A stretch of 64,000 nucleotides of DNA from a virus: positions 32,001-96,000 of the IMG/VR virus record IMGVR_UViG_3300024264_000011, one strand, 5' to 3'. The position numbers and the translations under genes were made by a program. The notes beneath the pieces are model-generated. The model was not told the DNA's origin. It did not search any database and saw only the letters and a program-made list of their open reading frames with translations. Numbering within the stretch: the first letter of the stretch is position 1; each line of letters begins with the position of its first letter. Of this stretch, positions 184 to 33,400 are shown piece by piece.

Positions 184-3100
184 TTAAACCTCCCTGAGTC
201 TATCGATCCAATATTGTGAAATACTGAATCCTTTGTCATAACTAGTTATAATAGTTTCTCTTGGATTATCTGACGCTCCAAACTTCTTATCTTCATCTGG
301 AGTATTATCAGAGTTTGTTGCAAAAATTTCTACTTCACCACTACCATTACCACCATTCTTATTGGCAACAAAAACATCACCAACAGCAGGTGTACCTTTA
401 ATGTCATCCGTTAACTTTTTCCAATCAGTCGTTCCGATGTGAATAATTTTATATCTAACATCTTTACTAATTTCTTTGGCGGAAATTATTTGAACCTGAT
501 CTGAAGAAGAACTTACAGCTTCTCTAACACAATTTTGGAATTTTCTATCAGTTTTACTATCATAATAGATAATTTCTTCACCAGAATATGAGAAATAAAC
601 AGTATTATTACCAGTTTGATCGGTAACTATTTTTTTCTGATATTTTAGAATAGAAAGATATCCAGACTCCAAGAACCCTGATGTACTTTCTACTAAAATT
701 TCAGTATCAGAACTTCCAATACTTCTTCTAATCTTAGCTAAAACTGGTTTGTCCATATATGGATTACCAAAGTTGGCAAGAGTTTCACCAATTAACTCAG
801 TGAGTTCATTTAGTCTAAACCAGAACATTTTATAAAAATCTTGTTGATAACTTACATTCCTTTCCCATAGAACTCTTGGATATACAGTTGGAATTGGTGG
901 TAAGATATCATCATCACTGCTACGATCTTTATAATCAAGATCTCTTAATTGTGGTGGTAATGAATTGTTTGTAGCTTCATAATACGCACCATCACCATAC
1001 TGTTCTGCTCTCTCACCAAAGTAAATATTATTCTTTGCATCTTTTGGACCAATTCTCCATCCGGCACTATAGTTACATCCTGATGATGAAATTCCAGCAG
1101 TATAACCAGGTTGTCCTTCTGTTCCTGATGATGGAGTTCCTGCAACAAATGAAGATGCTTGTGCAGTTACAGCACCTGTAGATGAAGTAATGGTATCTAA
1201 GTAACCCTCAGAATCTAAATTCACAGTGATTATAATAGAAGATGTAGATCCTCCTGCTGTTACTGTAGTAGTTTGTGTGGTAGCTCCACCAGTCCAAGTC
1301 AAACGTGGTTTAGATCTAAACACAAGTCTTGGTTGATTAATTGTAGTCTCTGGTGATAGATCAAGAACTGGATTCACAAACTTATCATCTGTAATAACTA
1401 AGTCCTCAATAAAATACTTACATCTATCCATTGATGGGGGTAATTCTCTATAAGAATCAGAAATATTAATTCTACCAGAATTATCAGAACCTTCAACCTG
1501 AGGTGGTAGATTCTCAATTTTTGTATCTGGTGTAGAATTTTTAATATTTCCAGTTCCAGATTTAATTTTATTTAAAATTGAGTCTTCATCACCAACTAAT
1601 CTATTATAATAGTCTTCACTTAAAAATGAAGATTGTGAAATAGTATTTGTTATAATTTCTTCAAATCTATCAACTACCTTATCAAAATCATCATATTTAC
1701 CTTGTTTTTTTCGCTGTCGTTCAACTTCTTCAATAGTACGTCTAATACATGCATCTTTGACGCCTTCATCAATAGTATTACCACCTTCACCCAAATCATC
1801 AAGTTCAAGTTCAGGAATATATGATTGGAAATACTCTAACCTAACATCATTTCTACAAATAGAGTCAAAAGTTATTGCAGATTTCAATCCCTTAAGTTCT
1901 GTCTTACAAAAATCACCGACAACTCCATACATTCTGATTATGTTAGAATCTTTTTTGTAATCTCTGTAAAATTTTCTTAGAAGATATCTTGGAATAGGAG
2001 AATTCGTAAGTCCAAAATATAGAGAAGCAATCTGATATATGATTGGTATCTCAATACTTGGTTTTCTCAACACATATACATCTTCAAAATCATAACCAGA
2101 AATTATTTGATTGTCTCTCCATATAGTAGTTGCAAGTACATATTCTCCAAGTTCATCAACATCAGTTTCTTCTTGACACTGAGCATCTGCAGCATAGAAG
2201 ATTGGACTATACTGAAGTTTTTTCTTACCACTTGAATAATATGTACCAACAACAGCAGATCTATTAATGACACCTTTACCCGCTCTAACAGTAATTTGTA
2301 TACCATCACCACTTGTATAATCGCCATCTGCAGTAAAATCACTACCAGATCCATTAATCTCTGCATAACAAAGAGTATGTTTGCTAATTCTATTCACAGA
2401 GTTATCTGCAAATCTTACTGATTTTGGACGATCACCTACGAGAGGTTTAGTAATAAAAATTCTATTTCCTGCAGTATCAACGGCAGTTATTTTAGTACCT
2501 TCAGAAATACTGTCATCATCAACTGGACCAAAAACCTGCATATCTTCTGCTAGATCAGCAACAGTGTCTAACTTTAACCAACCTTGAGTTCTTGAATATC
2601 CATCATCACTACCACCATATACATCTTTAAATGTATCCTTACTGACACCAGGTTGACTTAGATTCTTTGGTGAAGATGATGCAACTGTTCTCTTGAGAGC
2701 AATATCAACAACATAGTTAACAATATTGGTGATGGTATGACCATTGATAGTATCACCAATCTTCATTGGTCTACTTGTAGAACCAGACTTACTATTTGAT
2801 TTTTCCCCTAAAGATATTTTCCAACTACGCATGTACGTGTTAACATTATTATCCGCCTTAAACCAAACTTTAAACTTACTGGTTGATAATAATTGTATTC
2901 TAGACACAACTACATTACCACTATCTCGTAATCCAGATGCACTTAAACCAGATAAAAAAGAGATATTGATATCTGCAGGAGTACGAATATTAAATCCACT
3001 TACAGTAACTTCATAATGTTTTCTTGCATTGGAATTATCCCCACCACCGAGATCAGCAGGTGAAATTTCTTGAATTGTAAAACTGGTAGAAGAACTAGTT

Positions 3101-4428
3101 AAACTATTAGTTACATTTGCTGGGTCATTAAAAACATGATTAACAGTAGTTTCTACTGGATTAGTACCTTGCAAATTTTCTGGTTGATAATTAAAGAAAA
3201 TTTTATTATCATCAGTGCCACCATGATAAATTATTGGATCACCAATCTTACTTGTCAAATAAGACGACTTATTACTTTGCGTAGATGTTGCACTATAATT
3301 AGTAGTACCTTTAACAACTAAATTACCTTTATCATCAAACTTTGCAGTTACGCTAGAACCATTGGTATTAGTAACATTTAAATCAACTTGTGCGTTTGTA
3401 TCTGATCCGCCGCCATCATATAATATAATTCGAGTTCCATTATTTGTTACATCAAATCCACCAGCATTTCGAGTCAAATTCAACAAATAATCACCATCAG
3501 ATAATGTTACTGATGAACTAGTACTACCTTTTTCTCCACTCTGTGTAAAACTTACACCACTTCCATTCCATCCAATCGTACCAACAGCAACACCTGCAGT
3601 ATCTGGATCATCATCCCACTCAAATGAAATATTGATAGATGCTGAAATATCAGAAGGAACAGCAGAACCTGCTCCTTCATCACCATTAATTCTTCCTGTA
3701 GTCGGACTAAAACTTAGTTTTCTGTAATTATAATTCTCATCAATCCATAAAATTTCACTCTCAACTTTATCAAGTTCCGTAGTGCCAGTAAAGGTGACAC
3801 ATGGAGTAGCTACTGTATAAGTAGTTGATTGACCAGCGCCTTCTCCACACTCACAAACTGCTTGTTCTTCAAAAAATCCACAGACTTTCCGTGTTACTAC
3901 AGTATGATCTGTCGGCCAATTGAAGACATGTTGAAAATATTCCTCATCATATGTAATAAAAGGTCTACATTGAATCTCCCATCGCGGAACTTGATTCTTT
4001 AATTTCTCTACTTCATCAACATCTTGTTCATAATAATACTGACCAGATGTAATTGAATTGATATATGATTTATCTTCATCATCAACATAGTCATCGACTT
4101 CATTGATGTAATTATATCGGAAATATAATGGTTCTCTTTCCGCAAAAGTAATTGCTTTTATATCGTTACCGTAACTGTCTGTACCAGAAAAAGAGCTATT
4201 TTGGTTGCCAACTTCATTATGGTTGTAACGAATCAACCCACTAATGGTTTTTTCAGTGCCAGGAGTTGATGTACCCGCTACTGCTGGTGTATAACCTGAT
4301 TGACCTGGTGTACCAGATGCAGGTGTACCACAAGAAAAGTTTGGTGGGGGCGTATACGATATCGTACGCTCCCTATACTTACGTGTAGGTTTACAATTAT
4401 GAATCCTTGCTTTATCTTTCTTCGCCAT
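184..4428 (-). CDS. Large virion structural protein (1414 aa)
   Basis: Long S/T/G/N/D-rich ORF directly upstream of the PAAR gene. The C-terminal segment IGSSDTEILVESTSGFLESGYL...EEIIYYDSKT...FQNCVR resembles a beta-module that recurs in cyanophage virion proteins and in gp5 of this window. Confidence 0.7.
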   Translation of the reverse strand: MAKKDKARIHNCKPTRKYRERTISYTPPPNFSCGTPASGTPGQSGYTPAVAGTSTPGTEKTISGLIRYNHNEVGNQNSSFSGTDSYGNDIKAITFAEREPLYFRYNYINEVDDYVDDEDKSYINSITSGQYYYEQDVDEVEKLKNQVPRWEIQCRPFITYDEEYFQHVFNWPTDHTVVTRKVCGFFEEQAVCECGEGAGQSTTYTVATPCVTFTGTTELDKVESEILWIDENYNYRKLSFSPTTGRINGDEGAGSAVPSDISASINISFEWDDDPDTAGVAVGTIGWNGSGVSFTQSGEKGSTSSSVTLSDGDYLLNLTRNAGGFDVTNNGTRIILYDGGGSDTNAQVDLNVTNTNGSSVTAKFDDKGNLVVKGTTNYSATSTQSNKSSYLTSKIGDPIIYHGGTDDNKIFFNYQPENLQGTNPVETTVNHVFNDPANVTNSLTSSSTSFTIQEISPADLGGGDNSNARKHYEVTVSGFNIRTPADINISFLSGLSASGLRDSGNVVVSRIQLLSTSKFKVWFKADNNVNTYMRSWKISLGEKSNSKSGSTSRPMKIGDTINGHTITNIVNYVVDIALKRTVASSSPKNLSQPGVSKDTFKDVYGGSDDGYSRTQGWLKLDTVADLAEDMQVFGPVDDDSISEGTKITAVDTAGNRIFITKPLVGDRPKSVRFADNSVNRISKHTLCYAEINGSGSDFTADGDYTSGDGIQITVRAGKGVINRSAVVGTYYSSGKKKLQYSPIFYAADAQCQEETDVDELGEYVLATTIWRDNQIISGYDFEDVYVLRKPSIEIPIIYQIASLYFGLTNSPIPRYLLRKFYRDYKKDSNIIRMYGVVGDFCKTELKGLKSAITFDSICRNDVRLEYFQSYIPELELDDLGEGGNTIDEGVKDACIRRTIEEVERQRKKQGKYDDFDKVVDRFEEIITNTISQSSFLSEDYYNRLVGDEDSILNKIKSGTGNIKNSTPDTKIENLPPQVEGSDNSGRINISDSYRELPPSMDRCKYFIEDLVITDDKFVNPVLDLSPETTINQPRLVFRSKPRLTWTGGATTQTTTVTAGGSTSSIIITVNLDSEGYLDTITSSTGAVTAQASSFVAGTPSSGTEGQPGYTAGISSSGCNYSAGWRIGPKDAKNNIYFGERAEQYGDGAYYEATNNSLPPQLRDLDYKDRSSDDDILPPIPTVYPRVLWERNVSYQQDFYKMFWFRLNELTELIGETLANFGNPYMDKPVLAKIRRSIGSSDTEILVESTSGFLESGYLSILKYQKKIVTDQTGNNTVYFSYSGEEIIYYDSKTDRKFQNCVREAVSSSSDQVQIISAKEISKDVRYKIIHIGTTDWKKLTDDIKGTPAVGDVFVANKNGGNGSGEVEIFATNSDNTPDEDKKFGASDNPRETIITSYDKGFSISQYWIDRLREV

Positions 4429-4450
4429 ATTTCAGAGAAATTCGCGCTGT

Positions 4451-4654
4451 TTACTCACCTATCTTATGTAGGCGGAGGCCTGGAAGGCCATTGTAGTCAT
4501 GATATTCCCACTCTAAAACATCCCCTTCTTCCCACTGCAGTTCATCGACAAGTGACGGGGGGATTGTTATAAAATATTCATCCTTGTCTGAATCATACTG
4601 AACTTCAGTACTAAATTCATTGATATTCATTTGATTGGTATTACAAGTCTTCAT
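4451..4654 (-). CDS. AbrB/MazE/SpoVT-family small DNA-binding protein
   Basis: Motif FITIPPSLVDELQWEEGDVLEW matches the AbrB swapped-hairpin signature. Confidence 0.7.
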   Translation of the reverse strand: MKTCNTNQMNINEFSTEVQYDSDKDEYFITIPPSLVDELQWEEGDVLEWEYHDYNGLPGLRLHKIGE

Positions 4655-4660
4655 TATATA

Positions 4661-4828
4661 TCAGTTTTCATACGTAGGATCGTTATATTTTAGATATTCT
4701 CTGAATATATGTTTCATCTCCCTCTGAGTCATTCCACAGTGTTCTGCAGCTAATGGTAGATTCATTGTTGCACAAAATAATCCTTCATTCGCTTCTTTCA
4801 CATTCTCGGGAGTCGTCTTTTTCGTCAT
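4661..4828 (-). CDS. Small cyanophage hypothetical protein (55 aa), possibly helix-turn-helix-like
   Basis: Manual translation MTKKTTPENVKEANEGLFCATMNLPLAAEHCGMTQREMKHIFREYLKYNDPTYEN; below the ORF-track cutoff. Confidence 0.6.
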   Translation of the reverse strand: MTKKTTPENVKEANEGLFCATMNLPLAAEHCGMTQREMKHIFREYLKYNDPTYEN

Positions 4829-4967
4829 ATGCATAAGTGTAAAGTTCGTTTAAAATTTCTCGGAGTTCTTCATATTCTTTCATATAATCACCACGAAGTC
4901 TGCCAAAACTTTCCTTCTGATGTTTACGTACAATTGAAAATACTTCCTGCCATTGTCTCTGTGTCAT
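4785..4967 (-). CDS. Hypothetical protein (60 aa)
   Basis: ORF track; start overlaps the upstream stop (TAATG). Confidence 0.55.
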   Translation of the reverse strand: MTQRQWQEVFSIVRKHQKESFGRLRGDYMKEYEELREILNELYTYAYDEKDDSRECERSE

Positions 4968-5122
4968 TACGTTAGTCTCACTCTGTAAAATTTGAGTTTT
5001 TGTACAAGTTCTTCATGATCTCCTCCAACTCTGATTCCTTCCCTAATCTGTGATTGGTGATACGATGGTAGTTTTTCGAGTGCTAGTAAAAGATGGTCTA
5101 CTTCCTGAAGTGAAAATTTCAT
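4967..5122 (-). CDS. Hypothetical protein (51 aa)
   Basis: Manual translation MKFSLQEVDHLLLALEKLPSYHQSQIREGIRVGGDHEELVQKLKFYRVRLT; ATGA and TAATG overlaps with its two neighbours. Confidence 0.6.
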   Translation of the reverse strand: MKFSLQEVDHLLLALEKLPSYHQSQIREGIRVGGDHEELVQKLKFYRVRLT

Positions 5123-5328
5123 TTGATACTATCGATGTTTTTGTAAAAAATTCTTGTCAGATTGTCGAGTGAATTGGACATTTGTCTATATCCAGTCCCG
5201 ACATAAATCTGACCGACCAGTACAGTTAAAGTCGCGGCTCCCCAGAACCAGTAATACCATCTCGTCTTTATTTGATGTCCTCTGATGTCATCTGGACTAT
5301 CTGTGTATATGTCAATGGAGTTTTTCAT
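5119..5328 (-). CDS. Small single-pass membrane protein
   Basis: Hydrophobic stretch WYYWFWGAATLTVLVGQIYVG. Confidence 0.6.
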   Translation of the reverse strand: MKNSIDIYTDSPDDIRGHQIKTRWYYWFWGAATLTVLVGQIYVGTGYRQMSNSLDNLTRIFYKNIDSIK

Positions 5329-5483
5329 GGCAAAAGGTCTCTGAAGAGTTTTTTGGCTTGAGAATTTTTTTATATATGAGATATTGAGAGGTCGGATTTG
5401 GTCCGTTATAGATTAGGGTAGTGACCCGTTTTCGCTCACGGACGGGGGACCAGAGGCCAGGCCCTCCCGTTTCCTCTCTTGAC

Positions 5484-5723
5484 TCAGCCGGATGTCTTGA
5501 AGTAAGATGAGGCGTTGCCGGCGACGACTGAACGGGTCGCTGTCACAGCAGAGGGCGATGTCTGTCCTCGGCGGTTGGTGTTGGAGCGACTGCCCTTTGT
5601 CATGCTCATGGGTGTCTCTCCCTTACGTGGTCCACGTTGCTTGAGCACTGTGACCTTGACTGTCTTGCCGTTTGCCTGTAGGGCAGTGGCGATGTCGAGC
5701 AGGTTTTGAGTGGAGCTTGTCAT
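5484..5723 (-). CDS. Early hypothetical protein, basic
   Basis: ORF track; K/R/S/T-rich; preceded by a sigma70 promoter at 5746-5774. Confidence 0.65.
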   Translation of the reverse strand: MTSSTQNLLDIATALQANGKTVKVTVLKQRGPRKGETPMSMTKGSRSNTNRRGQTSPSAVTATRSVVAGNASSYFKTSG

Positions 5724-5745
5724 GTGTTTGGTTTCGTATGTGGCT

Positions 5746-5774
5746 ATTGTACAGGGTCAGGAGTCAGGCGTCAA
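5746..5774 (-). promoter_or_regulatory. Sigma70-type early promoter
   Basis: Minus strand TTGACG-N17-TACAAT. The -10/leader 21-mer (plus strand gtttcgtatgtggctattgta) is identical to the one at 6001-6021. Confidence 0.8.
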
Positions 5775-5991
5775 CCCCAAAGAGCAGGTCAGCGATCTGC
5801 TCTACCTGATCCACACCAGCACGGCACCACTTGTAAGCAGCACCGTTGTGTGGCACACACCAGACGACACAGGGTTCGCCGAATGCATCAGCAAGGCGGT
5901 AAGCGTGGTTGATGTCGGTTGCCCACTCACAACCCCACTCATCAAAGGTGCCGTAGGAAGCAGGTTGAACGGCGAAGTTTGAAGTGAGCAT
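5764..5991 (-). CDS. Early hypothetical protein (75 aa)
   Basis: ORF track; SD-like AAGGA and a promoter cassette upstream. Confidence 0.65.
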   Translation of the reverse strand: MLTSNFAVQPASYGTFDEWGCEWATDINHAYRLADAFGEPCVVWCVPHNGAAYKWCRAGVDQVEQIADLLFGVDA

Positions 5992-6015
5992 GTGTCCTTT
6001 GTTTCGTATGTGGCT

Positions 6016-6060
6016 ATTGTAGTCTCTAGCCCCCTCCTCTGAGAGGGCCGTTGTGCCAGT
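6016..6060 (-). promoter_or_regulatory. Early promoter with upstream motif half-site
   Basis: -10 TACAAT (6016-6021) with ACTGGCACA 30 bp upstream. Confidence 0.6.
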
Positions 6061-6222
6061 TCAGAAATCGATCTCGTCTGAGCGTCCATAAGCAGCAAGT
6101 CCTGTAGTCTGGTCTGGCATAGCACCTAGTTGCTGCAGCATGCTGAGATCCTCCAAACGTGTCAGCAGTTCGCTGGTGTCGGTGGCGTCACGAAGCAGGG
6201 CGATGAGTTGTTCTTTGTTCAT
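6061..6222 (-). CDS. Hypothetical protein (53 aa)
   Basis: Manual translation MNKEQLIALLRDATDTSELLTRLEDLSMLQQLGAMPDQTTGLAAYGRSDEIDF. Confidence 0.6.
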   Translation of the reverse strand: MNKEQLIALLRDATDTSELLTRLEDLSMLQQLGAMPDQTTGLAAYGRSDEIDF

Positions 6223-6257
6223 GGTGTTGTGTGAGTGAGTGAGTGGATGAGTAAGGG

Positions 6258-6395
6258 TTAGAAATTATCGTCATAATCGTTCTCTCTGATGTCATCTTCA
6301 GAGAGTTTGGGAGCATCATCGTCCCATCGTGGTTCCTCTTGTAGGAACACATCGGCGCAGTCTAAGTATGCGATCTCGTTGATTTCGTCGTTCAT
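6258..6395 (-). CDS. Very acidic small protein (45 aa)
   Basis: Manual translation MNDEINEIAYLDCADVFLQEEPRWDDDAPKLSEDDIRENDYDDNF. Confidence 0.5.
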   Translation of the reverse strand: MNDEINEIAYLDCADVFLQEEPRWDDDAPKLSEDDIRENDYDDNF

Positions 6396-6437
6396 GTGAT
6401 TTAAAAGGATGATGTGATTAAGTGGGGGGATTGACCC

Positions 6438-6764
6438 CTATGCGAGACGCATACCGGAACGAAACTCAGTGGTGAAAAACTCTGTACCGTTCCACAATCT
6501 GATGAACCACTCAAAGTTTTTCTGGAATACACCCTCTCCAGTGACACCGTGTTCTGAAAGAATTGCATTCAAACGTGACTTAGTGGTGTTTGACTGATAA
6601 CCCCCATCATACAGTTTGATCGAATCGTCTGTGATTTCTGCGATCAGATTGTTGTGAAGATAGACAGAGGAGACACCCTCGACGGTCTCAACGCGAGTGT
6701 TTGCAGTTCTCCAGTCTGTACCCTCTGAGATTGCATTGTTCATGAGGGTTTCGATTTTACGCAT
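6438..6764 (-). CDS. Early protein, paralog A of the MRKIET family (108 aa)
   Basis: Aligns end to end with 7377..7703 (shared DGGYQSNTTKSRLNAI and GVFQKxFxWFIR). Confidence 0.8.
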   Translation of the reverse strand: MRKIETLMNNAISEGTDWRTANTRVETVEGVSSVYLHNNLIAEITDDSIKLYDGGYQSNTTKSRLNAILSEHGVTGEGVFQKNFEWFIRLWNGTEFFTTEFRSGMRLA

Positions 6765-6823
6765 GATGAAAGAAGAGAGAAGGTCTGAGAGGTGTGGTGA
6801 GGTGTGATCCCCTCCACTCCTTT

Positions 6824-6882
6824 AATATACACGATTTTAGGGGTCTGTGGGGGTTTAGTGGACACTTTGGTGAACTGTCCAC
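6824..6882 (-). promoter_or_regulatory. Early promoter with palindromic upstream element
   Basis: Minus strand GTGGACAGT-N7-AGTGTCCAC, 28-bp gap, then TATATT preceded by TG; no -35 box. Confidence 0.75.
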
Positions 6883-6920
6883 CTCAGGATCGATTTCGCT
6901 ACATTTTGTGCAATACTGAT

Positions 6921-7052
6921 TTACCTTGATTTTTGAATCGTTGAATCATAGTAATTCATCATCTTACTATCACGTTCCGCAAGGAATAACAGATAGCAAG
7001 TCATACCCATGATAACACAGATTCCACTCAGTAAGTATTGCGTAACTCTCAT
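6921..7052 (-). CDS. Small membrane peptide (43 aa)
   Basis: Manual translation MRVTQYLLSGICVIMGMTCYLLFLAERDSKMMNYYDSTIQKSR; ATGA overlap with the upstream gene. Confidence 0.5.
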   Translation of the reverse strand: MRVTQYLLSGICVIMGMTCYLLFLAERDSKMMNYYDSTIQKSR

Positions 7053-7339
7053 TGTACCTCTACTAATTCTTGTTGATATGACATGAATTGCTCCTCTGTA
7101 ACCTCATCCACACACTCTTGAATCACCTGATAGATGTAATCAATGTTTCCAACATCATCAAAGATACGTCTAATCAATGCAGTATTTTCTACCTGATGAT
7201 CATAATCAACCTCACCATTTTCATCCTTTACATGTATATCATTCTTGGTATAAATCCATGCGGCACATTCTGCATCCTCCCCCTGTTGTGCAATCATTTC
7301 ATTCACACGGTCTTGGAGTTGTTTGAGAGTGTAGTTCAT
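7049..7339 (-). CDS. Early hypothetical protein (96 aa, acidic)
   Basis: ORF track. Confidence 0.7.
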   Translation of the reverse strand: MNYTLKQLQDRVNEMIAQQGEDAECAAWIYTKNDIHVKDENGEVDYDHQVENTALIRRIFDDVGNIDYIYQVIQECVDEVTEEQFMSYQQELVEVQ

Positions 7340-7376
7340 GAGTTTGTGTTAGATAGTGTGAATGGGTGAGTGTAAC

Positions 7377-7703
7377 TTAAGCAAACTCAGCGAATGTGTA
7401 ACCATCAACGAAATCATGGATGACTTTGTTGTCACGAATGAACCACTGAAAATCCTTCTGAAAGACACCATCAGTGAACGCACAACAGAACTCGTTGATG
7501 ATAGCGTTGAGACGTGATTTAGTTGTGTTTGATTGATACCCACCATCAAAGATGGTAACAAAGTCATCACCAACCTTTGCAATCAAGTTACCATGCAAAC
7601 GCACCTCAGACACACCGTCTTCAGTGGTAACACTAGTGTTTGCGTTAGTCCAGTTCTTGTTTGACTTGATCGCGTTGTTCATCTGGGTTTCGATCTTACG
7701 CAT
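7377..7703 (-). CDS. Early protein, paralog B of the MRKIET family (108 aa)
   Basis: Paralog of 6438..6764; SD GGAG and its own promoter. Confidence 0.8.
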   Translation of the reverse strand: MRKIETQMNNAIKSNKNWTNANTSVTTEDGVSEVRLHGNLIAKVGDDFVTIFDGGYQSNTTKSRLNAIINEFCCAFTDGVFQKDFQWFIRDNKVIHDFVDGYTFAEFA

Positions 7704-7731
7704 GGTTTGACTCCGTTTGGTTGATGTAGCT

Positions 7732-7789
7732 ACAATACACGATTTTGAGGTCAGTGACGAAACCGTGTGACACTAGTCTGACTGTCACA
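7732..7789 (-). promoter_or_regulatory. Early promoter with palindromic upstream element
   Basis: Minus strand TGTGACAGT-N6-AGTGTCACA, 28-bp gap, -10 TATTGT. Confidence 0.75.
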
Positions 7790-7973
7790 GACCGTTCAGA
7801 TAGTCTGCAAGTTCCTGATCATACTGTTCTTTCGTGTCAAAGGTGCGACCATAGATGACACAGGGGAACGTCTTGTCGAGACCTGCAGACGCGACCATCT
7901 CGCAGTCTTGTCGATCGTATCCCATCTCGACAAGGGTGTTCACGTAGGGGTTGTTTGAAAGGGTTTTGTTCAT
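7785..7973 (-). CDS. Early hypothetical protein (62 aa), probably leaderless
   Basis: ORF track; only 6 nt separate the -10 box from the ATG. Confidence 0.7.
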   Translation of the reverse strand: MNKTLSNNPYVNTLVEMGYDRQDCEMVASAGLDKTFPCVIYGRTFDTKEQYDQELADYLNGL

Positions 7974-7979
7974 GTAGCT

Positions 7980-8037
7980 ACAATACAGGATCAGGGGACG
8001 AAATCAATTGATCGTGGACGGTTCACCGATTGTCCAT
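7980..8037 (-). promoter_or_regulatory. Early promoter with palindromic upstream element
   Basis: Minus strand ATGGACAAT-N6-ACCGTCCAC, 28-bp gap, -10 TATTGT. Confidence 0.7.
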
Positions 8038-9196: not shown

Positions 9197-9403
9197 TCAT
9201 GAATTGGTTGCAGGCCCACTGTCAATCTTCTGACTGTCACATAACTTCTTTACATTTTTGTATTCACAGTTGTATACTACTAGACGAGTTTGTTGTTGTT
9301 TAGGAAACTCATCACCTAAAAGTATACTTAATGACCATTCACAAATGAATATAACCTTTCCTGTATTGTTCTTGTAGTTTACTAGATCTCCAATTTTAAA
9401 CAT
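9197..9403 (-). CDS. Small SH3/KOW-like protein
   Basis: N-terminus MFKIGDLVNYKNNTGKVIFI is typical of small beta-barrel phage proteins. Confidence 0.55.
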   Translation of the reverse strand: MFKIGDLVNYKNNTGKVIFICEWSLSILLGDEFPKQQQTRLVVYNCEYKNVKKLCDSQKIDSGPATNS

Positions 9404-9647
9404 TATTGATCCTCTTATTATAGTGATTACGAATTATTTCCATTAATGATTGCTGTAACTTAGGATCAGATGTTTCATTATATGCTTGTATATACAATGC
9501 CATTGCATCATCTGGCCGTGGTATTGTCATACCTTTCTTTGACAAACTATACTTACTAAGTTCATATGTGCCTGGGCGTGTCTTTATCTTTTGTCTTCCA
9601 AAGTTGCCAGTGACAGCACCTTTCATCCTGGGCATCTTTGAAGCCAT
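9396..9647 (-). CDS. Basic hypothetical protein (83 aa)
   Basis: ORF track; SD AAGGA; first gene downstream of the consensus promoter next to the DnaA-box cluster. Confidence 0.7.
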   Translation of the reverse strand: MASKMPRMKGAVTGNFGRQKIKTRPGTYELSKYSLSKKGMTIPRPDDAMALYIQAYNETSDPKLQQSLMEIIRNHYNKRINNV

Positions 9648-9676
9648 AGAGCATCCTTTGAACGTCTGACAGAGCT

Positions 9677-9705
9677 ATTATACAGAGTTTCTGTCATGCT
9701 GTCAA
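9677..9705 (-). promoter_or_regulatory. Perfect-consensus sigma70 promoter
   Basis: Minus strand TTGACA-gcatgacagaaactctg(17)-TATAAT. Confidence 0.9.
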
Positions 9706-9710
9706 GGGGT

Positions 9711-10174
9711 TGTGGAAAAGTAGTTTTCCACACGTACATATTACATATGATAATAATTTCACATGTCATGTATATGCATATATCATATGTTAATAATTTA
9801 GTAAACTATCCAAGTATACTCAGAAGACCTTAGAGGGGTCTTAGAGGTCCTTCTAGGGGTCTCTGAGAGCACATATACACACATATCATATGTTAATAAT
9901 ATGCATACATATGATAATAATTTAAATCTCTGAGTTTTCCACAGGGCCTCGGAGGTTTTCTGAGCTTGGCGACCTTGACATTTTCATAGATTGCGGGTAA
10001 AGGTAACAACAACTCAGAGGATTACCAGAGGTTTATCATAGATTACCACACACATATGATAATAATCCCCTCTTACATACACATATGATAATAATTACAA
10101 AACTCTCAGCCACATTTAATTAACCATTCTTTTTCCACAGGTTTTTCCACAATTTATGCGGAACTTGTGGATAA
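9711..10174. other. oriC-like non-coding locus: DnaA-box cluster plus iteron-like repeats
   Basis: DnaA boxes TTTTCCACA at 9711-9719(-), 9724-9732, 9935-9943, 10131-10139, 10143-10151 and TTATCCACA at 10166-10174(-). No ORF of 60 aa or more on either strand. Confidence 0.75.
9744..10095 (+). repeat. Six direct 14-bp repeats CATATG(A/T)TAATAAT
   Basis: Starts at 9744, 9784, 9887, 9908, 10053 and 10082, all in the same orientation. Confidence 0.95.
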
Positions 10175-10177
10175 AGG

Positions 10178-10762
10178 TCAAGCATACCATCCAACTAATG
10201 TTATTCTCTGACCTTTCTTCAATGGTTTGACTCTATGTGGCACAGTCGATGGGAACACAATGAAATCACCATAGTTAAACTTATGAGTAAAGATTGAATC
10301 ATCTTGTTGTATTTGAAACTCTCCACCTACATAATCTTTCTTATGAGATAGACAATACACAATACTGATTCTTCTTATACCCATGTTATGTTTTTCATTT
10401 AGAGCAGTACACTCTGGGTAGTAATCTTTATGCCAACCATAGTGATGTCCTTTATCAGTATATCTTGTATATTGAATATGACTTTCCCATTTGTTATCTA
10501 ATGGCAGTTTCCATTGTTGATCATTACAATGGCGAATGATGTTAGCGAATCCTTCATTGATGAAATTAACTGAATCTGTTGGAATCCAGTTTGTATGACA
10601 CTTTCGGAGTTTACCATTGACACCATCAAGTAACGAACCTTCACCTGGTTGTTCATCTTTGAAACAGAGATTACATGTGTCTTGTACTTCATCAGTTGCT
10701 TTATCATTACCTAAGTTACCAATAATGAATTCAGGTCGGATGAGTTGTTTCATTGTCTCCAT
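10178..10762 (-). CDS. 2OG-Fe(II) oxygenase (prolyl-4-hydroxylase/PKHD-like)
   Basis: QYTRY...YGWHKD...RRISIV...YVGGEF...FPSTVPHRVKP...RITLVGW; HxD...H triad and distal Arg are intact. Confidence 0.9.
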   Translation of the reverse strand: METMKQLIRPEFIIGNLGNDKATDEVQDTCNLCFKDEQPGEGSLLDGVNGKLRKCHTNWIPTDSVNFINEGFANIIRHCNDQQWKLPLDNKWESHIQYTRYTDKGHHYGWHKDYYPECTALNEKHNMGIRRISIVYCLSHKKDYVGGEFQIQQDDSIFTHKFNYGDFIVFPSTVPHRVKPLKKGQRITLVGWYA

Positions 10763-11121
10763 TTAGGTTGTTTGTCCCATGATTGTTCAATCAGTTGTGA
10801 TACCAATTGATCACGCAAGTTGTTGATCTTATCTTCAGTGAATTGAGCGAAGTTATCTCTCTTGTCCACTTTCTTGTAATAATGCAAAGCATTCAGTATT
10901 ATTGTTTGTTCAGTCATTGTAAGTTGGTACTGATGTGTTTCATGAATCAAGAAACAATCAATTGGAAATAATCCTTCCTTATTCTTAACCTTAACTTTCT
11001 TTTCTTGAATGTTCTCAAGTGTGTAAGTATAACCAAGAATCAACGTCGATCGATTTGGTGCTGGTCCTGGTTGTTTAATGAGTTCAATACGATCGCCTGG
11101 TTTCATTTCTTTACGGGCCAA
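10750..11121 (-). CDS. Hypothetical protein; N-terminal half resembles 12342..12539
   Basis: MKPGDRIELI...YTLENI...GLFPIDCF versus MNPGDRVQFI...YILTDV...GKFNSVCF. Confidence 0.6.
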   Translation of the reverse strand: MARKEMKPGDRIELIKQPGPAPNRSTLILGYTYTLENIQEKKVKVKNKEGLFPIDCFLIHETHQYQLTMTEQTIILNALHYYKKVDKRDNFAQFTEDKINNLRDQLVSQLIEQSWDKQPKWRQ

Positions 11122-11172
11122 CTAAATTCTAATGTGATTGTAAGTAGAATAATGAAGAAAAATATAAAAACA

Positions 11173-11436
11173 CTAGACATGTTCTTGTAACTTATACTCT
11201 TTCTTATCTAGTTGATATCGACGAATATACTTTTCTGCATGTTCATAACATTGAAAATGACATACTTTATTCTCTTTACGATCCTCTAATCTCCATGGAA
11301 ATGTAGAATACGGAAACAACTTAGTATCCTTTGATTTTGTCCATTTGATCTCCGTCTCTTTGACTTTACGTTTCCGTGTTGTCTTTTCTGTGAGTTTGGC
11401 AATATTACGTGCAAGAGCATTTTGTGTCTTAGACAT
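11173..11436 (-). CDS. Basic cyanophage hypothetical protein (87 aa; start re-called)
   Basis: Starts MSKTQNALAR with SD GAAGG; contains FPYSTFPWRLE...CHFQCYEHAEKYIRRY. Confidence 0.65.
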   Translation of the reverse strand: MSKTQNALARNIAKLTEKTTRKRKVKETEIKWTKSKDTKLFPYSTFPWRLEDRKENKVCHFQCYEHAEKYIRRYQLDKKEYKLQEHV

Positions 11437-23701: not shown

Positions 23702-24772
23702 TTACTGATACTTGTAAATAAATCTAACTAAACCTGATCCACCGTTACCACCAGCGCCTCTATATTGTGGGGCATCTCTTTGACCTCCTCCACCTCCACC
23801 TGCTCCTCTATTAGCACTTCCAGCACCAGCATTAGCGGTATTAATGGATCCAGCACCACCTCCACCCGATCCACCCGATCCTGCTTGAGTTTGCGCTGGT
23901 GCATAAGCACCACCAGGTCTAGAACAACCTCCGCCACCTCCAGCTCCATATCTTATCGTTACCTGCATATTAGTTTGTTCAACTGACCACACAAGGCCAT
24001 TGCCACCAGGGCCTCCTCTAAAAACACGTCCATCCTGAGTTGGATAAGGACCAGGGCAATTTCTTCCAGTTTGTTCAGCACCTCCGCCTCCACCTCCAGC
24101 GCCATTTCCTGGAATTGTATAAGATCCTGTACCACCATTTTTTCCTTGTGGTGGAGAAACAGCAGGAGTATTACCATTTCCACCAGGCCAACCGCTAACT
24201 GGATTTCCTCTTACAGATCCACCTCCACCAGATCCTCCAGCATTACCAGCAGAAAATCTTCCACCTCTTCCACCACCAGCAGATGTAATTCCATTAAAAG
24301 ATGATGAACTTCCATTAGATCCATTACCAGAGTTTGGTCCTCCTGGACCACCAGATCCTCCAGCACCTACAACAACTGGATAACTACCAGGTGATATATT
24401 CATAGTGCCGGTTCTCATACCACCTCCGCCTCCACCTCCAGAGATTCCGCCGCCTCCTCCACCGCCGCCACCGACGACGCAATAATATAATTCGGGTGCA
24501 TCATCAGGTGCATGATTTATAGTTAACGTACCACTACTACTAAATTCAACTCTTCTCCAATTACCATTAGTAGCATTTGGTGAATTTCCAGGATATGATA
24601 CTGACATATAAGTCCTATTAAGACCCCTAAAACTATTCATAGATATTGCACCTGTTGCAATTCCAATAGCTGCTCTCATTGCAGCATCACCAAGACTACG
24701 AGTTGCACCACTAGCATGTCCCACGTATGATTGAATTTGGTTTATACTAATAGATCCAGTAGGTAAAGGCAT
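23702..24772 (-). CDS. Glycine-rich tail-fibre tip adhesin (gp38-like architecture)
   Basis: N-terminal MPLPTGSISINQI...GAISMNSFRG attachment-type segment, then polyglycine runs ending GGNGGSGLVRFIY; directly downstream of the fibre gene. Confidence 0.75.
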   Translation of the reverse strand: MPLPTGSISINQIQSYVGHASGATRSLGDAAMRAAIGIATGAISMNSFRGLNRTYMSVSYPGNSPNATNGNWRRVEFSSSGTLTINHAPDDAPELYYCVVGGGGGGGGGISGGGGGGGMRTGTMNISPGSYPVVVGAGGSGGPGGPNSGNGSNGSSSSFNGITSAGGGRGGRFSAGNAGGSGGGGSVRGNPVSGWPGGNGNTPAVSPPQGKNGGTGSYTIPGNGAGGGGGGAEQTGRNCPGPYPTQDGRVFRGGPGGNGLVWSVEQTNMQVTIRYGAGGGGGCSRPGGAYAPAQTQAGSGGSGGGGAGSINTANAGAGSANRGAGGGGGGQRDAPQYRGAGGNGGSGLVRFIYKYQ

Positions 24773-27700
24773 TAGTTATCTCCTTTAAGTAATTTAATTT
24801 CTTCTTTGAGTATATTTATTTGTTCTTGTTGGTCTTTAATTGCTTCAATTAGCAGACCCACCATGTTGCCATAAGCAACAGATTTAGTTCCCTCCTCATC
24901 GGTAGAAACAAGTTCGGGGCAGACTTTTTCGACATCTTGAGCGATAACTCCCATCTGTCTTCCGAGTTCTGGAGTATCTATTCTGTCAAATGTTACGCCA
25001 TTGATCTGATTGACCTTATCAAGAGGGTTTGCAATAGGTTCAATGTTCTCTTTTAATTTAATGTCAGAGTATGCAGTAACGTTTCCAGTTGCTGTAAAGC
25101 TTCCATTGTCATCGAATGTGTATCTAGTTGTTGAACCATCACGGATGTAGAAGTTACCGATTCCGCTGTTAAGGTCCATATACATATGTGAACCATTACA
25201 GAAAAACTCAACATCATCACCACTTCCAAAATAGAGATATTCGTTATCTGGTAAATCTAGATGATTATTGATAGTTACTCGACCATTAAATGTCGAGGCT
25301 TTCGCAAAAGTAAGTGTACTAGCTGTCCATGAGGCAACTTCGGCGTTGTTACACCAAAACTTCAAATTACCGTCAGAGGGGCATTGAAATCCAGTATCGT
25401 TATCAGCACCTAAACAAATATCTACGTTAGTTCCTGGGTTAGAAGCTGTTCCAGCAGCAAGTTTTGTGCAATGGATGTTTCCGTTGACATCTAATTTTGC
25501 AACTGGGGCAGTCGAGCCAATTCCCACATTGCCAGAGAAATAATTCTTTGTCTCGCCGGTAATATATGTACCCCATTTAGTACCTACAGTTCCAGCATAT
25601 GATCCGAAGAATAAGTATCCGGTTGTCACAGTACCAGCATTACGGTCAATGTGTGAATAAACTCCTTTTGCATCTCCAATAGTATCTTCATCACACTGAA
25701 CCTCAAAATATCCACCAACGGCATTACCAGACTTACCAGAACCATTATCTGTGTTCTGTGCTCTACCATATACTGCGTATAAAGTACCTCCTGATGTATT
25801 GCCGCCTCTATATGCTATAGAGTGGATACCATAAGCATTAACCGCACCGCCTGCAGCATATGCTTGTGCATATGTATATGCACCAAAGACGCTTTGCGTG
25901 CCTATTCCAGATCCATTACCTGTAACTTTGGCAAAACTATAAAGACCTCGATTGTCGTGAGTATATCCAGTAGAGTCTGAAGAAGTGTAAATGCCGTACA
26001 TATTATGACGGTTGCCGTTAGTGCTTGTAGTGTTTGACTTTGAATTATCCACATCGACTCTAAGGCCAACTTGGGCTCTATTAGCAGTAAAAGCGGCAGT
26101 ACCAGACCAGTCCGCATCGATATATACGGTGTTATAACTACTATTTTGTCCTGTTTGCCAAGTATTATCTACGTGCAATGGATGATCATGCCATCCAGTA
26201 TCGGTTTCACCAGTACCTGTGTTAATACCTCTCGATACTGCAAGACCACCATCAGTTGATAGTGACATAGCACCACCAGACGCATCATGAGCAGTATCTC
26301 TCCACAAGAATCCACGATCAGATTCATTATTGAATGTAAATGTCATTGCATAATCATTCAATCTACCATGAGTTCTGCCTGACATCATACCAATAGTATA
26401 TGAACTACTATCCCAAACTCTTATTTTGTCTGCCGTATTAGTAGTATGGTGATTGATAATAGAACTACCCGTTAAAGTAATAGTACCACTTGTTGATAAC
26501 CCACCAGCAATAGTTTGACCATTGTTTGAATGGAGTCTTCCAGTTCCAGTGTTAATATAGAATGGTCTTAAACCATTCCAAGTATCACTAGCAGCTGCAC
26601 CTGTATTAGATAAAAGAATATAATAATTAGTACCATCATTTCTATGAATAACAGTTTCATCTGCATCGTTGTATAAAAGAAGTTGATTGTTACTGCCGCT
26701 AATTTTACAAGATGTACTTCCAACAGTGAGATTAAATGCAGGTCCAATTAAACTACCATCTCCATTAATACCTTTAGACGTTCCATCAACAAAGAAACCG
26801 CCATCTGCACGAATATATCGCGGGGTGTAAATGTTTTTAGCAGTGTTCTGATTAATTCTCAGCCAAGTAGTATCAGATGTGGTAATCTCACCCATCGCGG
26901 TTGTATTACGGTGGAAGAAAATACCACCACCTGTGATATTTGTTCGTTGCTCTACATAACCGCTGCCCCAGTTAGAGACTGATGGTGTGGATATGCGAAG
27001 ACCTCCCTCAGCGTTTACATAGACCAATTCACCAGTTTGGCTTGCGATCTTCCCAGCAGACTCGCCAGCATTTAAGACCAACTCAGTACCATTAGAGGTT
27101 CTAATTTCTTTGGTTTCTACACGAGTTGCTGGAGTAATTGTGTCAGGTATGCGGGCATCATTAATTGTTCCAGTTAGGTTAGCAGAATTAAGATTAGTCA
27201 AACCAGAACCATTACCACTAAACGAAATTCCAGATTCAGCAGTAATTGCCGAAGTTGTCAGCGTCATTATTGTGGAAAGTGATCTGGCTGTATTTGCAGT
27301 TGAACTATTACCTAGTTCAAAATACATATTAGCAGTAGTGCTATCAACAGAACATTCAATTCTTCCAGAAGAACCAGTTACATCTGGTACACCACCAAGA
27401 TGATTAAATGCTAGGTTTGCATTACCATAACCATCATTAATTGTTAATGCAACACTTCCACTACCTTTTCCGGCTTCAATATAAGAGGCACTAGTTCTAA
27501 AGGTTCCAGTTGCGCTATCATTGTTTGCATTTGATCTCAGATATGCAGAACCCTGTTGACCATCAAGTAAATCAGCATTTAGATTAGTAACTACTTGAGT
27601 ACTATCTACAGTAAATGGTGACGATGTTCCAGATGCACCACCATCAAATGCAGGTCTATTGCTAAATGTTAATGTACTTCCAGATGCACTATTAACAATA

Positions 27701-30414: not shown

Positions 30415-33400
30415 TCAATACTTGATTGCAGTAGCAACAACTTTATAGGTAGTGGTGTTAGTAGACGATGCAGTTGCAAGCAGTCTGATTACGTTAGAAA
30501 CAATATTAGTGTCAAATGTAGCAAGAACAGAACCAGAATGAACAGTACCATATGCAGTCATGTATGCAGTTGTTCCATCATGAACTACCAATACTTTTTC
30601 CATATGGAAGTTTGCATTTTCTGATACTTGAATCAAGAATTCGACAGATCTGTAAGTAGAACCATTAATAGAAGCAATTAGTGTTGCAGAAGTTGATGTT
30701 GTTGTAGCAGTGAATGACTTTTGTAGTGAATTTGCATCTGCAATTTCAGTTCCAGTAGTAACTATATCCCCAGTTACAGTAACACCAGATGTAGTGGTTT
30801 CAAATTTCTTAGAATCGTCATAATAAAGATCAACTGAACCATTAGTAGTAAATGTTGCTTTTACTTCATTTCCAGATGAATCATATACAACAATATTGTC
30901 ACCCCAAATATTTAAGTCACCAGTTCCATTTTCTCTAATATTAGATGAGGAACCTGAATGATAAATCTGCAAATCATTACTAGATCCAAAATTTATTCCA
31001 ATAGAATCTGGTAAACTAATGTTATTTTGGAATTCTGAAGTGCCACTGACTTTAATACTACCAGAAACATCCAGAGCAACAGTAGGAGCAGAAACACCAA
31101 TACCAACTCTATTGTTATCACCATCTACATATAAAGTATCTCTACCAAGAATATTTTTATAATATTTGATATCATCTGTACCAATAGTATGCCCAGTGGT
31201 TTCAATATTAGATCTCCAGAGAGTTGTATTTGATGGGAGACCGTTTGAAACTAGAACATAACCAAGAGACATCTCAGCAACAGTATCATAATCACTAACT
31301 CTTGTCGCTGTAAATGCAGAGTTTGCACTACCTACAGTGGTAATTTGATACAGACCATTCTCTTCTGCATTTGTCTGACCATTGACCAGAACAATATCAT
31401 TATTTCCGAATGTGACTCCATCTGCTGATGGGAATACACCATTTACAGAACCAGTTAGTGTAGCACCTACACCAGCAGTACCATTATTATAAGTTGCAGA
31501 AATATTAGATGTATGAATACCTTTAGCAATTGCAATACCAAAATTTACCCATGAAGGAACACCATTACTTACTGCAAGTACATTAGATTGATTACCAATA
31601 CCCAACTTAGAAATGGTTGCACTACTGTTACCATATAAAATATCACCTTGAGCGTAAGTTGTGATATTAGTACCACCTTTACCGACAGGTACAGTAGCAA
31701 CAAGATTACCTGGGTTTAGATAATATTGATCGTTATTACCATTTAAAGTTAGAGCATCAACAGTACCACCAGAAGATGCTGCCTTAATTGTAACATCACC
31801 AATAGAAGAAACATCAAATTGTTGATGGTTGTAAGCAGAAACACCTAATCTAGTATAACCAGAAGTACCAGTACTGCTACCAGTTACTGTTTGAATACCT
31901 ATTTTAACTCTATTATAGTGTACAGTTTCATTCGGATTTACTGTGTTATCTACAAAACTATCACCAACTAAAGTAAGAGGAGAATCACCATCTTCCACAA
32001 TACCTTGAACTGCTTCAGCCCATATAGAGTCTCCACGTAAGAATGTTTTATTATTTGCACTACCACTGGATGCAAGTCTATCTACAGAAATTACACCAGA
32101 AACAATGTTAGCAGCATCAACACTAGCACCAGACAAGACAGACCAGTTTGTTGTTGGTATGTTTGAGGTATTACATTCACCATCAATAGTGATATTGAAT
32201 ACCCTCAGACTAGTATTGCCGGAACCAGTTGCAGTAACATTAACTGCAGAAACAACTAATCCCCCAGTAGAAGATTCAGCTGCAGCTTTTGTGTTATGAA
32301 GAGTGAATGTGTTTGTAGTAACGGCACCAACAAAATAAAATGCTGTGTTAATTAATCCAGTAGGTAATGTAGTTCCCTCAGCTTTTACAGCATCACCAGT
32401 TGATAAACCATGTGTAACAACATAAAATTTATTTAAGTCTACATTAACATTGTTAAACGACAGTGAATGTGTTCCAGTTGATGATGACGAGAAAGATGCA
32501 AAATACTGTGTATCTAAATTGTAATTTGTATACAACTCAATTGTATTTCCATCGATAACTTTGACAAAATAATGACTACCATTAGTTAAACCACCAATAG
32601 CAACATTAGGTGATGAATCATATTCTAAAAAGTCACCATTAGAAAGACCATGTGAAGTAAGTGTTATTCTGCTAGTACTATAGTTTACATCATTTGTAGC
32701 ATCGAATGTAAATGACGTTGAACTTGCATTATTAAGTGTTTTTATAGGAGCATTATCATCATAAATGAAATCTGGTGCTCCAGATGAAGCACTAAATTTA
32801 ACCTTCTCACCAGTCAAGTTAACAAAAAGTCTTTGGATTGTATTCACAACTGTAAACACAAAACCAGAACCAGTTCCGCCCAAATCGGAAGAACTTGCAC
32901 TTAGTGTATCATTAGCGGCATAACCAGTACCACCTTTTCTTAAGTCAACGTTAGTGATTGTTCCATTCGTAACTGTGATATCAGCTCTAGCACCTGAACC
33001 AGATGAAGAAACATTAGTGAGAGCAACATTGGTATATACTTGAGATGCGCCAGTTGGAGTATATCCAGAACCTACGTTAGTTACTGTTCCACTAAAAAGA
33101 ACACCCTGTTCTAAACCATTAGTTCCTAGAGAAGTATCTACAGTTCCTTTAGCACCAGAAAGAACAGCTTCAATAGTTGTGGTATTTGTAAAAGTTGGAC
33201 TTGTGTGTAAATTATCAATTACAAGGAATTGTGATATATTATCAGACTGAAGAACATAACTTGTATCAACACCACCAACTTCTTCAGTAACAAAGTCACC
33301 AGCACCAACACTAATAAATGGAATATCTAAATGAATTTCTGCTCGTGCATCTTGACCAATAACTTTATATGTATTAAAGTTTCTAATTGGTGGAATAATA

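Follow-up and report, generated by a model that had tools for sequence, protein, structure and literature searches.

Why does a T4-like cyanophage carry, in the longest gap between its open reading frames (ORFs), a dense group of perfect copies of the DnaA box of its hosts? The gap (positions 9648-10177, 530 bp) lies in a 64,000-nt stretch, hereafter the window, which comprises bases 32001-96000 of a 107-kb virus contig of IMG/VR (IMGVR_UViG_3300024264_000011; CheckV completeness 58%), and it is bordered by a 2OG-Fe(II) oxygenase gene and an orphan 83-aa ORF. Our comparative analysis points to the gap as one instance of a control module, conserved and present once per genome, that Synechococcus-type T4-like cyanophages share and that would dock host DnaA. 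Tentatively, we take the module to be most likely an early origin-dependent start of replication, built like oriF, oriG and oriE of T4. The assignment to the T4-like cyanomyoviruses, already made from the letters alone in an earlier sequence-only reading of this stretch, is borne out by baseplate hub, tail tube and gp5-like genes on the contig and by a UvsW-type helicase, encoded 4.4 kb from the module and approximately 60% identical to its counterparts in S-BM3, S-SM1, S-RIM8 and other phages.

The sequence-only reading had described six perfect DnaA boxes in an ORF-free gap of about 500 bp, and all six were recovered where it had placed them: five copies of TTTTCCACA and one of TTATCCACA (Table 1). 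The window holds six TTTTCCACA sites against 1.27 expected from shuffled sequences, with none of 100 shuffles reaching six, and six of the ten TTWTCCACA sites of the whole contig fall inside 464 bp. The relaxed pattern TTWTNCACA, which the same reading had proposed to count, was not enriched (16 found versus 12 expected window-wide); therefore, the signal stems from the clustering of perfect boxes. Isolated boxes reported at 26045, 53689 and 55426 are real, and all of them lie within long ORFs. The degenerate copies noted near 10042 and 10157 are present and weak, with two mismatches in ATTACCACA (10042-10050) and three in TGCGGAACT (10157-10165).

Six same-strand copies of the 14-mer CATATGWTAATAAT, whose starts are 40, 21 and 29 bp apart in the three pairs, were also present as described; these are all the copies in the contig (0.19 expected), and the conserved core turned out to be 13 nt (ATATGWTAATAAT), with an extended consensus of approximately 17 nt, about gCAtATATGWTAATAAT. 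Repeat spacing is mostly near multiples of the helical turn. The least stable 60 bp of the locus, at 9738, ranks 63rd in stability among 107,315 contig positions. The CTC[A/T]GAG/TAGAGG family mentioned in the sequence-only reading exists too (3 of the 13 CTCWGAG sites of the contig are in the gap), and other phages also have the CTnnGAGG motif type upstream of the core. Beyond that reading, we found a perfect sigma-70 promoter by the left box pair, a backward-facing promoter-like core, a T-tract and the occurrence of the whole module throughout the phage family. The perfect promoter faces forward with the genes, with the left box pair 5 bp upstream of its -35 hexamer. In the backward core of the window, AACAACAAC comes after TAAAGG, and an AT-rich block downstream of the core (10053-10130) comprises repeats 5 and 6 and the T-tract, although the stability minimum of the locus is at 9738 and so outside this block. 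The right cluster ends 3 bp short of the stop codon of the oxygenase gene.

Relatives in the clade of the window were located via the 83-aa protein family together with a relaxed repeat-pair pattern, which gave L391-L395, L415, L417 and L421, the last being a truncated locus that starts inside the module and has two repeat copies only. All of these loci except L421 keep 5-10 same-orientation copies of ATATGWTAATAAT, the T-tract and the core CGGGTAAAG(G/A)..AACAACAAC, and perfect boxes are kept in all eight, with 2-4 in each. In a five-sequence alignment of the clade, identity is 93-98% for the boxes, the 13-nt core, the promoter-like core and the T-tract, with 71-91% of the columns invariant, whereas the rest of the gap reaches 75% identity and 20% invariant columns; the core GGGTAAAGGTAACAAC by itself is 95% conserved. 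The 15 aligned boxes differ at three places, each a T/A change at position 3, which is free in the DnaA-box consensus TT(A/T)TNCACA (PMC4674748). The three-box layout of the right cluster is kept in L391-L395, again with only T/A changes at box position 3, and L392-L395 and L415 retain the perfect forward promoter, while the promoter region of L391 differs. An exact scan of IMG/VR viral contigs for 14-mer pairs gave no match because the relatives have T for C at the first base; the 13-mer scan found them, its matches in low-GC and giant viruses being AT-rich chance matches. Independent marine runs carry the locus as well. Run X2 differs at 1 of 1865 nt, and the left pair is identical in run X3 (contig covering 9635-9763). 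No difference in the X3 and X15 strains falls inside a box or repeat; all seven lie between motifs, although with a chance probability of ~0.1 this is only suggestive. The boxes, 13-mers, core and T-tract are under selection.

The module extends well beyond this clade. Scanning IMG/VR for pairs of TTTTCCACA with 1-25 nt between them gave at least 116 loci; approximately 45 of the 116 listed encode relatives of the proteins of this phage, and their box clusters, with up to 7 boxes per 600 bp, occupy the same variable region, bounded by the structural module and the helicase. A blast search with 65 bp of the right cluster matched 179 phage records, 141 of them named Synechococcus phage and 12 Cyanophage, and among the matches listed for cyanophage records most fall in unannotated DNA. 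The boxes proved to be conserved in syntenic loci of relatives, which the sequence-only reading had suggested looking for; the lack of conservation that it would have counted as a refutation was not observed. The locus was examined in eight cultured phages, namely S-CAM3, Syn1, ACG-2014d, S-PM2, Syn9 and S-SM1, with S-RIM32 and S-RIM44 as blast matches only. In the first six, the module lies between the oxygenase or UvsW side and the baseplate genes (at 19.2 kb in S-PM2 and 52.6 kb in Syn9), and each genome checked has one box cluster. Its parts are AT-rich repeats, a promoter-like core, a T-rich tract and 2-7 perfect DnaA boxes.

Alignment of 22 modules revealed a shared order: CTnnGAGG-type motifs or a GTGACA..TGTCAC dyad; then TTGAC(A/T), 17 nt, gCTAAGAC, AACAAC and ..CACATT; then the T-rich tract (TACCTATaTTTTTTAAaCATTT); and then 2-4 boxes, usually TTTTCCACA-GGT-TTTTCCACA with a third box whose orientation, direct or inverted, differs between phages. 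The consensus of the promoter-like core is TTGAC-N17-gCTAAGAC-AACAAC. Box columns are at least 90% conserved versus a mean column identity of 40%. In a subgroup (L035, L053 and L116) the promoter is canonical, TTGACA-17-TATAAT or TATACT, with GGCCAAGATCACAACAAC after it, and the boxes precede the T-tract instead of following it; hence promoter, core and T-tract keep their mutual orientation, and the boxes sit on either side of the T-tract. Other subclades have different AT-rich repeats in the same place, such as five copies of ATAATACACTATAAT in L053 and the AAATCTTAAG type in S-PM2. The copies in L053 (5800-5940), where the window has 13-mers, each end in a perfect TATAAT; the repeats of the window end in AATAAT, and both hexamers are -10-like and lie on the strand of the backward promoter. 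Such endings hint that the repeats might act as -10-like elements, either of a promoter or for sigma pausing. The repeat core ATGATAATAAT also agrees at 10 of 11 positions with part of the E. coli Fur-box consensus, a conceivable link to an iron regulator.

On the host side, TTTTCCACA is a documented cyanobacterial DnaA box, as the sequence-only reading had stated: PCC 7942 has it as its consensus, and assays in Anabaena PCC 7120 and Cyanothece 51142 confirmed it (PMC4674748). Many cyanobacterial genomes contain triple TTTTCCACA arrays, as do other phyla, and TTTTCCACA-NNN-TTTTCCACA was found in 24 of 251 sampled Cyanobacteriota genomes, mostly with GGT as the spacer. The window at 10131-10151 is identical to the 21-mer TTTTCCACAGGTTTTTCCACA of multi-box oriC-like clusters in large cyanobacterial genomes. 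At nine of the 14 places examined, TTTTCCACAGGTTTTTCCACA stands in such a cluster with an opposed left pair, and the other five look coding. In cyanobacterial genomes L384-L388 it lies within GC-rich, coding-looking sequence, so that not every genomic copy of TTTTCCACAGGTTTTTCCACA marks an origin.

The regions upstream of dnaN were examined in five small genomes. Three with low GC (L254, L255 and L256), which are probably Prochlorococcus, have 6-8 TTTTCTACA boxes there and no TTTTCCACA cluster, and TTTTCTACA may be a lineage-specific variant of the DnaA box. A 2.5-Mb genome of 50% GC (L257) has one perfect TTTTCCACA and three TTATCCACA in approximately 500 bp close to dnaN, and a 2.7-Mb genome of 57% GC has five one-mismatch sites upstream of dnaN and no perfect box. 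DnaA domain IV (PF08299) was detected neither in the contig, which is 58% complete, nor in five complete module-bearing phages, and the reader of the boxes is thus most simply host DnaA. In these comparisons, the phage boxes match the site of the host initiator in sequence, in tolerated variation and in tandem spacing.

These results suggested how the module might work as an early origin assisted by host DnaA. The promoter would read into an easily melted AT-rich block, made up of the 13-nt repeat array and the T-tract; host DnaA on the perfect boxes at the edges would help to open this DNA or hold it open; and the opened DNA would let a phage replisome of the gp41/gp59/gp61 type load. We infer DnaA binding in vivo, unwinding, priming and a replication start at the module. 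The context is origin-like, combining the largest gap, low duplex stability, direct AT-rich repeats and promoters on both strands. Generalized to the group, and put a little more cautiously still, Synechococcus T4-like cyanophages may start early replication at a single defined DnaA-recruiting origin, with lineage-specific AT-rich repeats (here ATATGWTAATAAT) serving as an unwinding or pausing element or as sites for a further factor, so that replication would be coupled to the initiation potential of the host.

The closest models are the T4 origins. oriF and oriG consist of a promoter and an AT-rich unwinding element, with an R-loop as the primer for the leading strand, and a T4 origin is recognized by the autonomous replication of a fragment of approximately 100 bp during infection (Kreuzer and Brister 2010, PMC3016281). 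The module resembles oriF (uvsY), oriG and oriE in belonging to a T4-type phage, in its compact non-coding make-up, with a promoter-like core ahead of an easily melted AT-rich block, and in its neighbourhood of replication and recombination genes, and oriE likewise uses an early host-type promoter. The T4 origins differ in having no DnaA boxes, no host initiator and MotA middle promoters, whereas the module has perfect host DnaA boxes, lineage-specific direct repeats and, in the clade of the window, a weak promoter. The origins of P1, F and RK2 combine direct repeats with DnaA-box arrays (PMC4980987). Like iteron replicons (P1 oriR, F, RK2 oriV and pSC101), the module has direct repeats in one orientation and AT-rich DNA; P1 oriR has two DnaA-box arrays, and the module boxes flank the repeats at both ends (9711-9732 and 10131-10174). 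Iterons, however, are 17-22 bp long versus 13 nt for the module core (approximately 17 nt when extended), and the module has no Rep (winged-helix) gene found, no fixed box orientation and a lytic T4-like genome around it. With cyanobacterial oriC the module shares the 9-mer, the tandem unit with its 3-bp GGT spacer and opposed clusters approximately 100-400 bp apart, and it differs in lacking a skew switch and a place beside dnaN or dnaA, its neighbours being the oxygenase gene and the orphan ORF, in having the AT-rich tract on the other side and in its unconvincing DnaA-trios.

Several findings weigh against an early DnaA-assisted origin. Cumulative GC skew, by which the sequence-only reading had hoped to locate the origin, is monotonic across the contig with no turn at the locus; all genes flanking the locus are co-oriented, and such co-orientation confounds GC skew. 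The oriC unwinding system most often has its boxes in tandem, and there at least three DnaA-trios lie within 16 bp 3' of a box and are followed by AT-rich DNA (PMC8287927). The window has its AT-rich tract on the 5' flank of the tandem boxes, and on their 3' flank are a spacer, an inverted box and the end of a gene; the R1-DUE order of E. coli is likewise opposite to that of the window. The relaxed NAN trio rule is satisfied after the box at 9724-9732, which is absent in relatives, and in L415 the orientation of the tandem boxes to the AT-rich tract is reversed. The number (2-7), position and orientation of boxes vary among relatives. Within the clade, the left pair and the central box are found in the window only, while a 'TTGAG + box' comparable to the central box occurs outside it, in L028 and L067; in L415 the tandem pair is inverted as a unit after the T-tract; and L417 has no right cluster and instead a convergent pair among the left repeats. 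By contrast, the RK2 origin fails after inversion of a single box (PMC4980987). The backward promoter is weak in the clade (TTGACA or TTGCGT with TAAAGG), and its -35 hexamer is degenerate in relatives. No Rep_3 initiator gene was found in the contig, with its 58% completeness. T4-type phages need no DnaA and can replicate by recombination. The phages P-SSM2 and P-HM2 have no cluster of TTTTCCACA or TTTTCTACA boxes, and no core, T-tract or boxes were seen in the syntenic gap of P-SSM2 (48.2-48.7 kb). No phage isolated on Prochlorococcus is among the listed blast matches or the tallied hosts; Syn1 bears a Prochlorococcus name yet grows on Synechococcus WH8101. A scan of IMG/VR viral contigs for TTTTCTACA pairs returned only coding or tandem repeats and no syntenic module, and therefore the link between boxes and hosts is one of presence or absence, with no covariation. 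Of the origin with its own phage initiator that the sequence-only reading had proposed, the origin role stands as the best fit, and the cognate initiator, a skew turn, fixed boxes and an oriC-type layout were not found.

The variable boxes would also suit a different function, in which bound host DnaA activates, represses or blocks phage promoters and so ties early expression to the replication or energy state of the host. We regard this transcription switch, the main rival to the origin, as possible, if somewhat doubtful. The left pair stands just upstream of a perfect sigma-70 promoter that drives the next operon, DnaA bound at the right cluster, downstream of the core and where the upstream gene ends, could be a roadblock, and related modules have back-to-back promoters flanked by boxes; free placement and orientation also suit the sites of a regulator better than an unwinding machine. 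However, L392-L395 lack the left pair, as an alignment gap, and keep the forward promoter without a nearby box, the distance between box and promoter ranges from 5 to approximately 70 bp, and a switch leaves the conserved T-tract and the repeat arrays unexplained. An element acting on host DnaA itself, either as a sink that titrates it as phage copies rise or as a datA- or DARS-like element (DARS, DnaA-reactivating sequence) that changes its nucleotide state, would alter host initiation and would tolerate a variable number and orientation of boxes. The boxes are perfect, of the high-affinity type, and at least as dense as in the dnaN-proximal cluster of host genome L257. The DARS core has an opposed pair, boxes I and II, with 5 bp between them, and a box III in tandem with box II; datA is a box cluster with an IHF site (PMC6868365). 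The module likewise has approximately three boxes mixing tandem and opposed arrangements, with opposed pairs 4-5 bp apart in several modules; such pairs by a tandem box, seen in the left pair of the window and the right clusters of S-PM2 and S-CAM3, recall that core. The left pair of the window has a 4-bp gap and no tandem partner, and the right clusters of S-PM2 and S-CAM3 (gaps 4-5 bp) fit better. In the right cluster of the window, on the other hand, 14 bp rather than 5 bp separate the tandem pair from the opposed box, many relatives have only 2-3 boxes, and the boxes always lie within the same module beside core and T-tract, extra conserved parts that a plain sink does not need. datA and DARS2 are defined by IHF and Fis sites, and we know of no DARS or datA system in cyanobacteria. 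We consider this account improbable.

It is very unlikely that the conserved sequence acts as RNA, be it a structured non-coding RNA or a leader, with the 9-mers as RNA or hairpin elements. The strands of the window do fold well (z = -3.3 for 10004-10180 on the plus strand and z = -5.3 for 9648-9945 on the minus strand), but these scores stem from the palindromic CATATG repeats and the inverted boxes, RNAalifold gave no consensus structure and no covarying pair for the 22 modules, and the locus has no Rfam match, no tRNA and no terminator. Because the orientation of the third box differs between phages, the hairpin is not conserved. Contigs from RNA libraries cover 9544-9945 and 9612-9868 and none covers 9978-11200; they are strandless and may contain DNA, and were not counted for or against transcription. 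Equally slight is the probability that a phage or host protein other than DnaA reads the 9-mers, or that they are selectively neutral. The completeness of the contig, only 58%, leaves some room for this, but the motif is the cyanobacterial DnaA box, its variation is confined to the position that DnaA tolerates (PMC4674748), and its tandem unit is identical to one in host oriC-like clusters; the strong conservation excludes neutrality. The early origin assisted by host DnaA stays our preferred, though provisional, reading of the module.

Table 1. Features of the ORF-free gap and its flanking genes (window positions; boxes are perfect unless marked degenerate).
Feature	Position	Strand	Description
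83-aa ORF	9396-9647	-	Directly downstream of forward promoter; basic disordered N-terminus, C-terminal helical hairpin
Perfect sigma-70-type promoter (forward)	9677-9705	-	TTGACA 9705-9700, 17-nt spacer, TATAAT 9682-9677; 12/12 matches; faces 83-aa ORF
Left DnaA-box pair, divergent, 4-bp gap	9711-9732		TGTGGAAAA at 9711-9719 (TTTTCCACA on -), TTTTCCACA at 9724-9732 (+)
Repeats 1 and 2	9744-9757, 9784-9797	+	Least stable 60-bp stretch of locus; core ATATGWTAATAAT conserved in clade
GC-richer imperfect palindrome	9819-9869		CTnnGAGG-type motifs (CTCAGAAG..CTTAGAGG..CTCTGAGAG); part of fold with z = -5.3
Repeats 3 and 4	9887-9900, 9908-9921	+	21 bp apart; in window and L391, absent from L392-L395
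Central single DnaA box	9935-9943	+	TTTTCCACA; preceded by CTCTGAG
Backward-facing promoter-like core	9975-10020	+	TTGACA 9975-9980, 17-nt spacer, TAAAGG 9998-10003, then leader AACAACAACTCAGAGG
Repeats 5 and 6	10053-10066, 10082-10095	+	Between core and T-tract
AT-rich T-tract	10108-10130	+	AGCCACATTTAATTAACCATTCT; abuts right boxes; cross-genus consensus TACCTATaTTTTTTAAaCATTT; 93% conserved in clade
Right DnaA-box cluster	10131-10174		Tandem TTTTCCACA pair at 10131-10139 and 10143-10151 (+) with GGT spacer; degenerate TGCGGAACT at 10157-10165; inverted TTATCCACA at 10166-10174 (-)
2OG-Fe(II) oxygenase gene	10178-10762	-	Conserved module neighbour; T4-GC 412 in S-PM2 and Syn1

One low-depth contig of run X3 joins 10025 to 10127 and skips 10026-10126, which holds repeats 5 and 6 and most of the T-tract, and it may be a natural deletion variant. 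The minus strand holds nearly all genes of the contig. The 83-aa ORF has no Pfam and no PHROG match, and its homologs, 58-93% identical, come from metagenomes only. The family has an invariant N-terminal motif, MPRM.GA.TGNFG. The AF2 model (pLDDT 67) shows a helical hairpin and a disordered N-terminus, with no winged helix and no family assigned. The gene is missing beside the repeat arrays of L415 and L417, which keep their repeats. We rejected the protein as a repeat-binding initiator or tied partner, given the lack of a family and its absence beside those two arrays; that it has no homology to the equally sized neighbour in S-PM2 or Syn1 also counts against an initiator role.

Elsewhere in the window, two paralogous Kyano_Gp96 (PF23790) genes at 6438-6764 and 7377-7703 sit in a GC-rich island (GC 0.43-0.48 over approximately 4000-8000 versus approximately 0.35 elsewhere). 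A 1414-aa ORF at 184-4428 unusually combines PHROG matches of the major-head-protein and baseplate-wedge types. The structural region includes giant minus-strand ORFs of 4900 aa (36754-51456), 1945 aa (30415-36252) and 1863 aa (24772-30363); relatives of a further giant ORF outside the window have a coding repeat in which in-frame TTTTCTACA pairs are spaced by 30 bp.

Few viruses of the ocean match the cyanomyoviruses in abundance, and to our knowledge their replication origins are unmapped. The sequence-only reading knew of no description of such a locus in cyanomyoviruses, and our full-text literature searches agreed, with no paper linking cyanophages and DnaA boxes; for Syn9, a review cites only a skew-based prediction of a single theta origin (PMC2984593). 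New from the window are a 13-nt repeat family that is defined for one clade; an additional pair of boxes joined to a perfect early promoter; boxes that relocate and invert within the clade yet stay perfect; box variation limited to T/A; and the contrast with TTTTCTACA on the host side. The module is the best candidate for the unmapped replication start of these viruses. As a compact, family-wide module with sites for the host initiator in the culturable models S-PM2, Syn9 and S-SM1, it is a concrete target for experiments. If true, our reading would make it the first DnaA-assisted origin in a T4-type virus. If DnaA is used, the apparent absence of the module from Prochlorococcus phages would be a trait linked to host range, and the phage would have its replication or its early transcription tied to the light, energy and cell-cycle state of the host.

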